A stretch of 51,345 nt of DNA from Myxococcota bacterium (lineage in GTDB: Bacteria > Myxococcota_A > Polyangia > Polyangiales > Houyiibacteriaceae). The DNA is taken from assembly GCA_039030515.1 (NCBI GenBank), contig JBCCEA010000029.1, positions 1-51,345 on the forward strand. Direction: 5' to 3'. Shown one piece after another: positions 46,101-49,100 of the stretch; the first letter of the stretch is position 1, and the number at the start of each line of letters is the position of its first letter. A program made the position numbers.

Positions 46101-49100
46101 ATGTGGGTTTTACGGTACGCTCCTAGGACTGCGCCATGGGAGACGAGTGCAACGGAGTTAAAGTAGGTGTGCGTTGCCCTCTCAAAGAAACTGACTGGCA
46201 GGGTGAAGCGATAGCGCTCGGAAAGCATGCGGAATCGCTCTACGGTCGGGTGTTCCTCGTAAGGCTTTGCGTATTCGAACCAAGATTCATCCTGCGTTTG
46301 CGGAAAATAGGGAACCTCGAAGAGCTCAGGTGCAAGGACAATCTCCGCGCCTGCCTGGGCTGCCTGGATGGTGAGCTCTTCAATCTGACCGATATTCTCT
46401 TCGGGATCTTTCGAGCCTAATGGGCTCTGCAACACTGCGATAGATGTCATGTTTTCTCCAGATTGAGTTGGCGTCTTGGCACTCGAGGTTGCTGTTGGGT
46501 TATGCAGTGAAAAGAGCCACCACCAGTGAGAATATGTGTCGCGTCTAATCCTAACGTCGTTCGATCAGAGAACAACGCGGCCAGGATAGAAACCGCTTCT
46601 GCGTCCGTGGGGCGCCCATACGACGGTACGATCACACTTTCGTTTGCGATGTAGAAGTTGCAGTAGCTTGCAGGAAGAAGTGTTCCACATGGTGTTTCAA
46701 TCCGCCCTGGAGACGGTAGTTCGATGACCTCTAAGAGTTCTCCCTCGACATTTCGGGTCTGGGACAGACGTTTGCGTATATCGCGTAGCACATCGTAGTT
46801 CGGATCATCACGGTTCATGGGCATCATGCAGACTACTTTTCCCGGTGCTACAAAGCGCACGAGATTGTCGATATGACCATCGGTATGATCGTTGTTTAGA
46901 CCTCTATCGAACCACACTACTTTTTTTGCACCGAAAGAGTTGATAAGTAATGACTCAATCGCATGCTCGTTTCGTGATGGATTTCGATTCTCATTTAAAA
47001 GGCACTCTCGCGTGGTAAGCAGAGTTCCGAGCCCGTCCTGTTCGAGTGCACCCCCTTCGATCACCAGCTGGATTCGACGCCTTGGTACTTCTGCGAGTTC
47101 GCTGATCCGTGACGACAAATCTTCGTCTCCCTCAAATCGATAGCGTCCTCCCCATCCATTGAATTGAAAGCAGGTGCCCATAAGACGACCTTCTGAAAAA
47201 CTAAAGACGGGTCCAGTGTCCCGAACCCAAATATCCCCAAAAGCTTGCTGATGAACCGTGGTTGAATGTTCGGGAAGCTCCGCACGTATCCATCGAGTGT
47301 CCTCCTCAGTCGCGGTTAGAATCTCCAGGCGCTCACCGCGAATGGCTTTACAAAAAGCCAAAAATTCTCGACGTGCTCCTTCAAAATAGATTCCCCATTC
47401 GTCCCTGAGATGGGGAACGGCGAGCCACACTGCCTCATGGGTTTCCCACTCTGCGGGAGTACGCATTGACTTTGGGTCGTTCATAGAAGAGATACCGCCC
47501 GAATAAGCTTGAGTTGGTGCATCTGTTTGAATTGGAACGCTCGTCTAGTGTTCTTCGAAGAACGCATGATCTCCAAATCGCGCTTCCATACGCTGCACGT
47601 GGCTCAATAGGTAATGACGCCTTCGTTCGACGCCCTCCAGTTGAACCTCTGAAAGTAAGGGCGCGAGAGGGTCCTCGGCCAGGCGCTCTCGATAGGAATT
47701 CATCTGGAATCTGCGTATGCGAGTCACCGTGGAACGACGAAATCGTTGTAGAGCCTCGATACGCGAATCCATCAAGTGAGTTCTTTGAAGATGTGAAGGC
47801 GGAAAACCGGCGCCGTTGTCTAGATAGACAAGAGGGCCCCCGCGAGTTCGCGTCCGGACATTGGTGAACTTGCCCCCCCAGCGGTCGATGTTGTGGGTCA
47901 GAAAATCAAAAGCGATCATATCGGAAAGCTCCTCAGGGCGCGTGTGAACATCAGGCTGCTTCGATCGTCCAGTCACAGGAGGCGCCAAAGAGGGATCGCG
48001 AATATGGGCCGCACGCTGGTAGGGGCTTCTTCGATGCAGAGCGCTGTTTCGAATCCAACGCTCCCAGCTTTTTCCTGGACGCAATGGAACCAACTCTTCT
48101 GGAATCCACCAAATAAATGCCCCCCTTACGGTTCCCTCAGGCTCAATGATCATTTCACCTCGTCTGCGAGTTCCGTGTGCCGCCCTTTTTAAAACCTGCC
48201 AAGAAACCCTCCTCCCAATGCTGGGAGATACCCGGAACACATCGAGCTCTCGATCGAGATAGTACGACGCAAGCTCAGCGTACCAATGTGCACCGCTGAA
48301 GCTTTGCTCGGGTTTGAAGTAGCCCCGTGTACCGTCTGCGAGCTCAATTTTGAATGCCAGAGAACGGCCGCCTCGACCCAATTTCACGCTTTGAATAGGA
48401 CTCATCGACAGCTTGCGTCTCCGCGGTTCGTCTTGTGCTGGATCAAATACCCAATCGCCTGACGCCCCTTCAGACTCAACTTCTGGAGGCGCTGGCATGT
48501 CGTTCTGAGTATGGGTAGGTAAATCTATCTCAGGTGGTAACGCTTTCAATACGTCAAGATTTGTAACCGCCTCCTCCCTCTCTGAAACAATGGATCTGGA
48601 GCGCTGCGAAGGATGCTCGTGGTCATCGGTGCATGCCAGAGACACCTTTCCGAGGCAGAGCAGGAGCAGTGGCAAGCCAGGAGGGAGAAGCCGCTTTAGT
48701 CGATGAAATGAGAACATGGATGGTTGGTTGATGCTACTTCGGAGATCTTGGCACGACTCGGTGCGCTCTAGATGTTCTAGGTAGAAGTGTGTAGAAGATC
48801 TCATGAACAGTGATCTTGAAGCAGTTTGCGTGACGGGCGCGTCTGGGTTTGTGGGCTATCACCTGTGCGCCAGGTTGGTGGCAAGAGGCTATCAAGTCCA
48901 TGCGGCTGTTCGAGATCCTAAAGATGAAGTCAAGGTCTCGCCTCTAAAAACCCTTGGAGTGAAGCTGTTCGGGGCAGATCTCAATGAGGAGCACTCGTTT
49001 GATGAAGCGCTGCAGGGGTGCCAAGGGTTGTTTCACGTAGCCTCGTCGGTGCGGCTACACGCCAAGGATCCACAGCGCCAAATCGTCGATCCTGCGGTTC

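Follow-up and report, generated by a model that had tools for sequence, protein, structure and literature searches.

A predicted exported Fam20-type kinase in the Polyangiales and its bacterial relatives

In animals, Fam20 kinases are behind most extracellular protein phosphorylation and behind the phosphorylation of proteoglycan xylose. The initial annotation of the DNA described here stated that the family is treated as a eukaryotic invention, and this agrees with the literature, which in the available text of PMC9758233 and PMC7948968 calls it eukaryote- or Metazoa-specific. In the accessible part of a 2026 bioRxiv preprint, FAM20B figures among the genes that Myxococcota may have contributed to eukaryotes, with a signal that is not always unequivocal, so that the idea of a Myxococcota origin is no longer unpublished. 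Beyond that one sentence no earlier description of a bacterial Fam20 was found in the literature searched. According to the text available of PMC5865150, Fam20 proteins carry four conserved disulfides, the catalytic base of hydra Fam20 is Asp299, and His301 and Lys321 are its sugar-contact residues in the Gal-Xyl pocket. The same source gives as specific to Fam20C a D/N-F/H-F-Y-F-S/T-D motif, a C-D/S-Y-Y-C loop and an Arg after DNG. Lys271 and Asp478 of Fam20C are each described as required both to bind ATP and for the enzyme to be active (PMC5413348). The Lys in Fam20 pairs with an acidic residue that is reported to lie in the K-beta3/K-alpha3 loop (Glu213 in ceFam20, Asp152 in hmFam20) and to be replaced by Gln in the pseudokinase Fam20A. 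In bacteria, the accounts at hand describe CotH of the Bacillus spore coat as an atypical kinase that was recognised by its resemblance to Fam20C and acts on an extracellular structure.

The Fam20-type gene described here lies in a window (the whole stretch of DNA that was analysed) of 51,345 nucleotides from a Myxococcota bacterium of the order Polyangiales. It occupies 47545-48717 on the reverse strand, with its stop codon at 47545-47547, and encodes 390 aa. As the initial annotation had it, the product consists of a lipoprotein-type signal peptide, a disordered linker and a kinase domain. The signal peptide, residues 1-29 (48631-48717, reverse strand), shows on inspection a basic n-region (HRLKR), a Leu-rich h-region and a lipobox-like VSLA-C29 that ends in Cys29. 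It is followed by a low-complexity linker, residues 30-89 (48451-48630, reverse strand), which is predicted to be disordered (pLDDT <50 over residues 29-76 and 79-87), varies in length among relatives and does not align. Residues 90-390 (47548-48450, reverse strand) are assigned to the Fam20-fold kinase domain by sequence and predicted fold. A lipobox-like Cys, by a loose pattern, is present in 21 of the 28 long forms of a set of 43 aligned sequences (A1), the 333-aa forms of relatives have Sec-type signal peptides on inspection, and signal peptides or lipoboxes occur throughout 120 listed relatives and in most of the 150 best-matching representatives. These features support a signal that would take the enzyme out of the cytoplasm by a bacterial Sec/Lol route, as predicted by inspection.

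One public gene call, P0003, begins at Met74 and comprises 317 aa, so that the signal peptide is lost. A longer frame extends to 48804, adds 29 residues ahead of the signal peptide and would abut the divergent gene starting at 48803. The 390-aa start is preferred because the N-termini of homologues agree with it. A sigma-70-like site inside the kinase gene (48549-48522) was set aside, as chance alone would give the region 4.3 of them. Four DNA runs from marine metagenomes, all from a single study and one of them perhaps the source run, match the DNA of 45593-48804, and no RNA run was found among the runs matching this segment. By these runs the epithet 'marine', originally applied to the whole family, is shown for the window's own DNA only.

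Both sequence and predicted fold support a true Fam20 homologue. The protein matches Pfam PF06702 (Fam20C) over residues 241-377 (E 4.9e-11; score 43.1 bits, cut-off 26.8), and at E<=0.01 the Pfam search gives no other family. A PDB sequence search returns Fam20 chains only, namely FAM20C (8.1e-11), zebrafish Fam20C (5e-10), hydra xylosylkinase (1.8e-8), FAM20A (2.6e-8) and the C. elegans protein (3.7e-4). Identity to animal Fam20 is 22-23%. The AlphaFold2 model (mean pLDDT 81.2, pTM 0.77, low only in residues 1-89) predicts the Fam20 variant of the protein-kinase-like fold across both lobes, and Foldseek ranks 1-28 are all Fam20 chains; the Fam20C-like motifs and fold claimed at the outset are borne out. 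In the Atlas, Acidobacteriota kinase clusters of 265-289 aa, which belong to another phylum and another clade, are structural neighbours (TM 0.65-0.66). PI4KII, CtkA, actin-fragmin kinase and HipA stand ~9 Z units apart from Fam20, at 11-16% identity and with no Pfam match. There is likewise no CotH Pfam match at E<=0.01, and CotH, in the accounts available, lacks the DFG-type metal motif, whereas the window's protein has D300-N-G. The structural matches listed include no CotH structure, which is no ground for excluding a relation.

The catalytic residues fall into two segments. The first (48274-48378, reverse strand) holds the Gly-rich loop G114-x-G-G-R118, the beta3 Lys135 (YFKPEQ) and the alphaC Glu148. 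The second (47803-47907, reverse strand; placed by HMMER alignment) holds the catalytic D271...N276-x-D278-R-W-G...N286 and the metal-binding D300-N-G-A303-G-F305. Invariant in 43/43 sequences are G114, G116, G117, R118, K135, E148, D278-R-W-G281, N286, D300, N301, A303 and F305, so the invariant residues listed earlier recur in a separate alignment. Across 133 diverse members of the wider superfamily D271, R279 and D300 are kept in all, N276 and N286 in 132, D278 in 130, K135 in 128 and E148 in 126. HMMER aligns the second segment with ...GNMDRHHYE... and ...LDNGRGF of Fam20C: N276-I-D278-R279 falls on GNMDR of FAM20C, whose Asp corresponds to the catalytic Asp299 of hydra Fam20, and L299-D300-N-G falls on LDNG, whose Asp is the metal-binding Asp478 of Fam20C. 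The equivalent of K135 in a sister clade is aligned to the Lys of FAM20C ...ALFKP... (Lys271), and the canonical alphaC Glu (Glu218 of ceFam20) is present as the invariant E148. The Fam20 Lys-pairing acidic residue was not located in the K-beta3/K-alpha3 loop, which is much shorter here and shows a 12-residue gap in the sister clade's HMMER alignment. Taken together, the alignments support an intact and strongly conserved catalytic constellation, and residue conservation suggests phosphotransferase activity. Of the original reading as an active exported kinase, homology, intact catalytic residues and conserved export signals are therefore upheld, while activity is probable from these residues.

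The bacterial domain departs from its animal counterparts in several ways. The four disulfides are absent: 37 of 43 relatives have a Cys-free domain and the other six a domain with a single Cys. Compared with Fam20B and hydra Fam20 (PDB 5xom, 5xoo), it is shorter (~300 aa against ~350-400 aa), has a shorter K-beta3/K-alpha3 loop than this xylosylkinase, and belongs to a protein with a Sec/lipoprotein export signal instead of an ER-Golgi route. In a motif-level mapping onto the partly available description, the His301 and Lys321 positions of Fam20B correspond to Trp280 and Ala303, both invariant in 43/43, and these Gal-Xyl pocket residues of the Fam20B subtype are thus not kept (D-R-W280, D-N-G-A303). 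Compared with Fam20C, the Golgi casein kinase (PDB 5yh3, 5yh0, 4kqb), all three Fam20C-specific elements, as given in the text at hand, are absent. There is no Fam20A-type partner, and no pointer to S-x-E protein substrates, as in Fam20C, was found.

Within one Polyangiales family the kinase counts as a core gene, and it was found almost only in the class Polyangia. It is carried by 75 of the 88 genomes of that family, its own included; one genus has it in 55/55 genomes, with two copies in most of them. This retention argues for selection. Among the other 87 family genomes 74 reach E<=1e-3 and 69 exceed the cut-off, against 53/87 in the initial annotation; the two counts differ in method. In a phylum sample 46/401 genomes, again including its own, carry the gene, and 0/14 control genomes searched in the same way have a Fam20-type gene. 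Of 8000 proteins scored in the homologue search, 480 reach E<=1e-3. The 120 homologues listed all have PF06702, with 333 aa as the commonest length, are named 'hypothetical' only, and come from Myxococcales, Polyangiales and Deltaproteobacteria MAGs. Within the samples searched, a large, unnamed and Myxococcota-restricted family is supported. At 50% identity 1359 clusters reach E<=1e-3, a count that may include eukaryotic clusters, and the 150 best representative matches all have bacterial-looking N-termini. A search for longer proteins with a short-domain alignment (A2) gave four matches, none recognisably eukaryotic; two are bacterial, 665-671 aa long, and carry PF06702. The long forms P0127, P0158, P0273 and P0274, searched for extra domains, gave only Fam20C and FAM198 matches. 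Databases auto-label such proteins 'Fam20 domain-containing'.

Bacterial Fam20-like proteins form many deep clades, membrane-anchored ones among them, and the DRWGG family of the window makes up a single clade within a larger superfamily of exported bacterial proteins. A Polyangiaceae 'DRYS/DRWS' clade from the same order (e.g., L093:3255-4535) also consists of exported lipoproteins, of ~400 aa and with the same catalytic residues. Animal Fam20 is nearer to this clade (Pfam 60-75 bits; FAM20C E 1.8e-18; an additional weak FAM198 match), whose genes have as neighbour not aguAB but a gene for a secreted polysaccharide deacetylase. In one source a member of the clade bears the automatic name 'glycosaminoglycan xylosylkinase'.

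Gene order was counted in 80 related loci, a tight clade of 49 and 31 deep-branching ones, and since the genomes are kin these counts are not independent. Sixty bp downstream of the kinase lies a gene for an agmatine deiminase-like AguA (46447-47484, reverse strand; PF04371 E 9e-105; 257 bits against TIGR03380, under the equivalog cut-off of 381.8), and no terminator-like site was found between the two. It is followed by a gene for an N-carbamoylputrescine amidase-like AguB (45593-46450, reverse strand; PF00795 E 7e-47; 373.5 bits against TIGR03381, cut-off 410), whose start overlaps the end of aguA by four bases. In 60 of the 80 loci aguA is directly downstream of the kinase, with a gap of 20-71 bp in 56 of the 60; 12 loci have no aguA within reach, and aguB is present in 64. 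The link recurs in 18 of the 31 deep-branching loci, where OCD is seen in 3, ThiE in 4 and Trx in 3. AguA has no signal peptide, as its Pfam match begins at residue 8, and AguB has none either, with a match from residue 4. The adjacency is real and old, and the two enzymes are cytoplasmic. The conserved putrescine-pathway partners noted initially are upheld as neighbours, but their value as a clue to a small-molecule substrate is weakened by the cytoplasmic location of AguA and by its presence in kinase-less genomes. On the other side, 85 bp from the kinase start, a gene of the NAD-dependent sugar epimerase/dehydratase family diverges (48803-49825, forward strand; PF01370 E 1.7e-25; best NCBIfam match HpnA, 139 bits, far under its cut-off). 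With the window's epimerase as query, such a gene adjoins the kinase in 0/80 related loci; at locus L119 an epimerase of the PF01370 family sits between the kinase and a TLC gene. Beyond it lies an ornithine cyclodeaminase/mu-crystallin-family (OCD) gene (49906-50961, reverse strand; PF02423 E 2.6e-84). In most relatives this gene is directly upstream of the kinase, and it is upstream on the same strand in 46/80 loci, 43 of them in the tight clade.

Carbohydrate, phosphatase and carrier genes accompany the kinase in relatives. A gene for a NAGPA-type phosphodiester glycosidase adjoins it in 13/80 loci, all among the 31 deep-branching ones, and also in L118 and L119, and a divergent polysaccharide deacetylase gene adjoins the Fam20C-nearer clade in 5/6 loci. 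Homologues of the TLC carrier (PF03219) are present in 80/88 genomes of the family versus 0/14 controls, and in 8 genomes of 6 genera the TLC gene is within ~6 kb of the kinase. These homologues are distant, with Pfam scores of 30-65 bits and TIGR00769 scores of 34-51 bits against a cut-off of 387. In genome G021 an orthologue 48% identical to the window's kinase is followed by a CX5R phosphatase gene (L118:6400-7197) and then by a TLC gene (L118:7194-8588) that overlaps it by four bases. Neither a phosphatase gene nor a TLC or NAGPA gene lies in the window itself. A tblastn search of it with six TLC proteins finds no match, and no open frame like a TLC N-terminus is present at the contig end (50950-51345). 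As its own assembly (85% complete) also gives no PF03219 or PF09992 (NAGPA) match, only relatives provide the glycan and carrier contexts.

The explanation we favour, at a probability of roughly 55%, is a catalytically competent exported Fam20 kinase whose substrate would more likely be an envelope or secreted glycan than a protein and would hardly be a metabolite of the polyamine pathway. A type-II (lipoprotein) signal peptide would carry the kinase across the inner membrane, and the flexible linker of ~60 residues would tether the disulfide-free 300-aa domain in the periplasm or at the cell surface. Lys135 and Glu148 would position a nucleotide triphosphate, Asp300, with Asn286, would hold the metal, and Asp278 would act as the base in transfer of the gamma-phosphate to a hydroxyl of an extracytoplasmic substrate, a cell-envelope or secreted glycan in a Fam20B-like chemistry. 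ATP is not known to be present in the periplasm, which speaks against the model; TLC homologues are a possible nucleotide supply. CotH acts in the cytoplasm of the mother cell, with access to ATP. Competence is read from K135, E148, D278, N286 and D300, invariant in the 43 sequences and kept in 126-133 of 133. The leaning towards a glycan follows from the deletion of the Fam20C loop motif (the 12-residue gap in the sister clade), from the NAGPA and polysaccharide deacetylase neighbours of relatives and from the epimerase-family gene in the window. Against the explanation stand the loss of the Fam20B sugar-contact residues in the mapped positions, the Lys-pairing acidic residue that was not located in the shortened loop, the distance of the TLC homologues and the glycan and carrier contexts seen in relatives alone, and aguA and aguB, the most persistent neighbours, are left unexplained.

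Phosphorylation of Ser/Thr in secreted, envelope or prey/host proteins by a Fam20C-type protein kinase is unlikely: neither the Fam20C-specific motif, nor the C-x-Y-Y-C loop (there being no Cys), nor the Arg after DNG is present, and Fam20C dimerizes, according to PMC5865150, through elements absent here. Moreover, no conserved candidate substrate gene lies nearby, and the neighbours in relatives are carbohydrate enzymes. Distinctly unlikely is a pseudokinase or nucleotide-binding scaffold, or a protein with another nucleotide-dependent reaction such as AMPylation or glutamylation. Precedents for the latter are SelO and a polyglutamylating bacterial pseudokinase, as far as the literature at hand goes, and Fam20A of the same family is a pseudokinase (PMC5413348). 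That the acidic partner of the Lys was not located in the shortened loop agrees with this, and if ATP is scarce beyond the cytoplasm, a non-catalytic role would become likelier. However, the five catalytic residues are all kept together, and the inactivity of Fam20A is tied, in the accounts available, to the Gln substitution and inverted ATP binding, neither of which is suggested by anything here.

The short gaps to aguA, the lack of a terminator-like site and the survival of the link in deep-branching loci, where the other window neighbours are mostly gone, are what speaks for a small-molecule kinase that would act with co-transcribed AguA and AguB on an agmatine- or putrescine-related compound. 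This has a very low probability, as the kinase carries an export signal and AguA and AguB do not, the 12 loci without aguA keep the kinase, and the neighbours differ in the superfamily's other clades. AguA is also present in 82/88 genomes of the family, and G018 (99% complete) and G002 (93%) have it without any Fam20-like gene by the family's own profile. Eukaryotic contamination of the MAGs, or very recent acquisition from an animal, might be suspected since the carriers found are all metagenome-assembled genomes, none of them a cultured strain, and since two reviews, in the text available (PMC7948968, PMC9758233), describe Fam20 from animals only. The same bacterial gene order in 60/80 loci, from different assemblies with several closed chromosomes or megabase contigs, effectively refutes contamination, and the bacterial signal peptides and lipoboxes, the lack of Cys, the low identity to animal Fam20 and the many deep bacterial clades leave the chance of either origin close to nil.

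A broader proposal, which we regard as speculative and rather improbable, is that Polyangia Fam20-like proteins are ATP-dependent periplasmic or surface kinases, fed by TLC carriers and reversed by phosphatases, and that they were the donor of animal Fam20, Four-jointed and FAM198; the kinase-phosphatase-TLC operon of G021 is the hint that carriers feed and phosphatases reverse the reaction. The value of the finding is tempered by the existing database auto-labels, by the lack of a cultured carrier among those found and by the derivation of activity from sequence. An exported Fam20 relative with all catalytic residues suggests the phosphorylation of extracytoplasmic targets by some bacteria. 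It raises the question of the source of the phosphate donor, which the TLC and phosphatase genes beside orthologues make testable. For work on structure and mechanism, a 300-aa domain that lacks disulfides and glycans would make a much simpler model than the animal enzymes. The family, which the initial annotation saw as a possible prokaryotic root or ancient transfer, also bears on the origin of animal secretory kinases, which the preprint, in its accessible part, touches in one sentence without resolving it. If the broader proposal is true, the phosphorylation of glycans and proteins in the Golgi would descend from a bacterial envelope-modifying system.

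The open frame of 390 codons at 47545-48717 on the minus strand encodes what is, with a probability of about 95%, a true Fam20 homologue. PF06702 (Fam20C) is the sole Pfam family listed for the product at E<=0.01, with 43.1 bits against a cut-off of 26.8, and the same search was negative in all 14 control genomes. Among its returned matches, a sequence search of all PDB chains gave Fam20 proteins only: FAM20C (8.1e-11), zebrafish Fam20C (5e-10), the hydra xylosylkinase (1.8e-8), FAM20A (2.6e-8) and a C. elegans protein (3.7e-4). Foldseek ranks 1-28 are every one a Fam20 chain, followed by PI4KII (15.7), CtkA (14.4), actin-fragmin kinase (12.2) and HipA (11.5). 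As matches to the window's protein, Fam20B-type and Fam20C structures lie less than one Z unit apart, which is a tie. The observation of the initial annotation that a Fam20C-like protein occurs in a bacterium is confirmed. Judged by sequence and predicted fold the protein is filed as a Fam20 family member that lacks the disulfides and the subtype-specific substrate residues, and 'new bacterial variant of Fam20' describes it best.

The Met at 48717 was chosen as start because the longer frame, beginning at 48804, places 29 residues ahead of the signal peptide and abuts the divergent gene that starts at 48803. A public gene call on the same DNA (P0003, 317 aa) begins at Met74 and loses both signal peptide and linker; the N-termini of relatives speak against that start. 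Automatic annotation may often hide the export signal of this family in such a way. By inspection, residues 1-29 are a signal peptide: a basic n-region precedes a core rich in Leu, and VSLA-Cys29 follows. A variable stretch predicted to be disordered (residues 30-89; pLDDT < 50 over 29-76 and 79-87) leads to a domain at residues 90-390 that is modelled confidently (mean pLDDT 81.2 and pTM 0.77 for the whole protein) and is strongly basic (pI 10.55, 43 Arg among 301 residues). Most relatives among the matches listed have 333 aa and Sec-type signal peptides. Closer relatives of the window's protein have 350-400 aa, with a Pro/Ala-rich linker behind a lipobox-like Cys; 21 of 28 long forms fit a loose lipobox pattern, and most of the best 150 superfamily representatives start with a signal peptide, lipobox or hydrophobic anchor. 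To judge from its signal, the window's protein is very probably exported.

The catalytic apparatus appears intact. In a close alignment of 43 relatives (44-53% identity), G114, G116, G117, R118, K135, E148, D271, N276, D278, R279, W280, G281, N286, D300, N301, A303 and F305 are invariant. Across 133 full-length superfamily members, D271, R279, D300 and R366 are present in every sequence, N276 and N286 each in 132, D278 in 130, K135 in 128 and E148 in 126, with Asp replacing the latter in six more. HMMER pairs N276-x-D278-R with the GNMDR and L-D300-N-G with the LDNG of FAM20C. According to PMC5413348, Lys271 and Asp478 of Fam20C are each needed for activity and ATP binding, and PMC5865150 gives Asp299 as the catalytic base of hydra Fam20. 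The joint conservation of these residues is the main argument that the protein is an active phosphotransferase, which is likely.

The domain differs from its animal counterparts in several respects. Animal Fam20 has four conserved disulfides (PMC5865150), whereas the bacterial domain has none of these and contains no Cys in 37 of the 43 relatives and a single one in the other six. The loop from the beta3 Lys to the alphaC helix is much shorter than in animal Fam20. In Fam20 this Lys has an acidic partner in the loop (Glu213 of C. elegans, Asp152 of hydra), for which no counterpart could be located here; E148 supplies the canonical alphaC Glu. Opposite the Fam20C stretch with the F-Y-F-S-D-Y-E motif, a sister clade of Polyangiaceae-type proteins shows a 12-residue gap in its HMMER alignment; the Fam20C clash and dimer motif, as defined in PMC5865150, is therefore missing. 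By motif mapping, the invariant Trp280, two positions past the catalytic Asp, replaces the xylose-binding His301 of Fam20B, and the invariant Ala303 after D-N-G replaces the essential Lys321 of Fam20B and an Arg of Fam20C (roles from PMC5865150). Given Trp280, Ala303 and the lost loop motif, the substrate pocket would be neither of the Fam20B nor of the Fam20C type.

The sister clade comprises lipoproteins of about 400 aa with D-R-Y/W-S-G-G-N in six Polyangiaceae-type genomes of the same order, such as the exported Fam20-like product of L093:3255-4535 (plus strand), with matching genes in the loci L094-L098. PF06702 scores 60-68 bits here (75 in the representative P0218), and E-values reach 1.8e-18 against FAM20C and 9.5e-17 against the hydra xylosylkinase. 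The N-lobe also matches FAM198 (in L093 with 25 bits, the cut-off being 25 as well; more weakly in others), and one member, from one JGI source, is automatically named 'glycosaminoglycan xylosylkinase'. The sister clade is nearer to animal Fam20 than the window's clade is, which places the window's protein in a more derived branch of a broader bacterial superfamily. Structural neighbours of the L093 protein in the ESM Atlas include Acidobacteriota clusters of 265-289 aa (TM 0.65-0.66), some automatically named as PI3/PI4-kinase family; these may be deeper bacterial relatives bridging Fam20 and PI4KII/CtkA.

A 43-sequence profile finds 1359 clusters (50% identity) at E<=1e-3, a count whose weaker bands may contain eukaryotic Fam20, 723 at E<=1e-10 and 147 at E<=1e-30. 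PF06702 occurs in 75 of 88 genomes of the window's taxonomic family, its own included (above cut-off in 70), and in all 55 genomes of one large genus, mostly in two copies. An even sample of the phylum has it in 46 of 401 genomes: 22 of 23 within the family, 15 of 38 in seven further families of the order, none of three in the ninth, members of four further families of the class, and one weak match among the many remaining families. The 80 related loci, taken from species-representative genomes, all come from metagenome-assembled genomes, whose specific labels are Myxococcota, Polyangiales, Sandaracinaceae, Polyangiaceae or Deltaproteobacteria; no cultured strain is among the named matches. 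The window's own DNA was found in marine-metagenome runs, all of one study. In the ESM Atlas a 333-aa cluster of 258 members, all Bacteria, is automatically named 'Golgi casein kinase, C-terminal, Fam20 domain-containing protein'. The large genus has a further Fam20-like paralogue, about 320-340 aa long, for example at L101:5920-6906 (plus strand). Of six loci examined (L099-L104), four (L100, L101, L103, L104) have it beside a 235-aa protein with His-kinase motifs, and an acyl-CoA dehydrogenase gene flanks it in L101 and L104. Pfam was run on the L101 and L104 frames, and no frame was confirmed as the paralogue in L099 or L102.

Literature searches found no characterised bacterial Fam20. Searched by term, PMC7948968 and PMC5865150 describe no bacterial homologues; 'bacteria' occurs once in the former, unrelated and in the reference list, and not at all in the latter. 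A kinome survey (PMC9758233) treats the FAM20 cluster as specific to eukaryotes or Metazoa, PMC6829671 gives the family a distant relationship to bacterial HipA, and CotH is described as a known bacterial kinase discovered through similarity to Fam20C. A preprint of May 2026 (10.64898/2026.05.08.723234) names FAM20B as one of at most five possible contributions of Myxococcota to the endomembrane functions of eukaryotes, with the qualification that this signal is sometimes equivocal. Bacteria could have passed the family to animals or received it from them.

Sixty bp downstream of the kinase gene, the window has an agmatine-deiminase-like gene (aguA), with no terminator-like site between the two; an N-carbamoylputrescine-amidase-like gene (aguB) comes next and overlaps aguA by 4 bases. 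Their NCBIfam scores of 257 and 373.5 bits are each below the equivalog cut-off. Related loci carry aguA in 65 and aguB in 64 of 80 cases; aguA is the next gene downstream, on the same strand, in 60, is nearby in five and absent in 12, three loci being too short, and the gap is 20-71 bp (aligned segments) in 56 of the 60 adjacent cases. These genomes are kin, so the gene-order counts are not independent. A tree of the 81 members of the clade, with three sister-clade proteins as its root, separates 49 rows that group tightly (aguA adjacent in 47, two too short) from 31 deeper rows, in which aguA and aguB persist in 18 each, and the Fic (11), ThiE (4), ornithine cyclodeaminase-family (3) and Trx (3) neighbours are much rarer. 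This makes the link to aguA/aguB an old one, and the most persistent among the window's neighbours. The conserved putrescine-pathway partners pointed out in the initial annotation hold as a matter of linkage, but three facts argue against functional coupling of the kinase to AguA/AguB. Both enzymes are of a cytoplasmic type without signal peptide, their Pfam matches beginning at residues 8 and 4; AguA is found in 82 of the 88 genomes of the family; and two of these, G018 (99% complete) and G002 (93%), have AguA, but not even the family's own profile finds a Fam20-like gene in them. Near the operon lie a Fic-domain gene (42773-43576, plus strand), kept in 56 of 80 related loci, and a PilZ-domain gene (44231-45445, plus strand) with a Myxococcus-type TIGR02266 match. 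The G+C content is 0.48-0.51 at 28001-32000 and 0.52-0.60 elsewhere in the window.

Neighbourhoods in relatives, and the window's own divergent neighbour, an NAD-dependent sugar-epimerase-family gene, point to glycans. In 13 of 80 loci the immediate upstream neighbour of the kinase is a NAGPA-type phosphodiester glycosidase gene (PF09992), usually in divergent orientation; all 13 belong to the 31 deep rows, some lack aguA, and L118 and L119 have the gene in the same place. NAGPA is a common family, present in 8 of 14 control genomes; the window's assembly, which is 85% complete, has no match to it. For the sister clade, Pfam identifies a secreted polysaccharide deacetylase gene (PF01522, once with Big_5) divergent beside the kinase in five of six loci; the sixth has a truncated frame with the same motif. 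An epimerase of the same Pfam family as the window's sits between kinase and TLC gene in L119. Homologues of the TLC nucleotide-carrier family (PF03219) occur in 80 of 88 family genomes and none of 14 controls, with no match in the window's own assembly. By coordinates, eight genomes of six genera (G007, G008, G009, G021, G022, G023, G029, G067) have a TLC homologue no more than about 6 kb from a kinase gene, in varying arrangements. In 26 further genomes of the large genus, a partial TLC match, taken as a TLC-HEAT fusion of about 880 aa, lies at a distance of 8-17 kb. Pfam was run on one of these only, the 880-aa product of L123:16468-19110 (minus strand; G043, contig C7), and confirmed that it joins part of a TLC-like transporter to HEAT repeats. 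This placement is conserved synteny of a single genus. In the L118 locus (L118:3943-8588; G021, contig C15) a NAGPA-type gene on the minus strand stands divergent from a kinase gene whose product is orthologous to the window's protein (48% identity); behind the kinase gene come a gene for a membrane-anchored CX5R phosphatase and then a TLC gene that overlaps the phosphatase gene by 4 bases. This arrangement makes the locus a candidate operon for an extracytoplasmic kinase, a phosphatase and a nucleotide carrier. The TLC homologues possibly supply nucleotide to the kinase but are distant members of their family: they score 30-65 bits with Pfam and 34-51 bits with TIGR00769, whose cut-off is 387. 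The window contains no NAGPA, CX5R phosphatase or TLC gene, and no TLC start precedes the contig end 2.6 kb upstream of the kinase. If the enzyme is active, there is roughly an even chance that its substrate is a glycan; a protein would be rather unlikely and a small molecule more so.

One clade of the superfamily (representatives P0224, P0230, P0239, P0242, P0244, P0257, P0260, P0262, P0272) has a hydrophobic anchor of the MRLGTC... type and no cleavable signal. Should the kinase domain of these anchored proteins face the cytoplasm, the superfamily would span both compartments.
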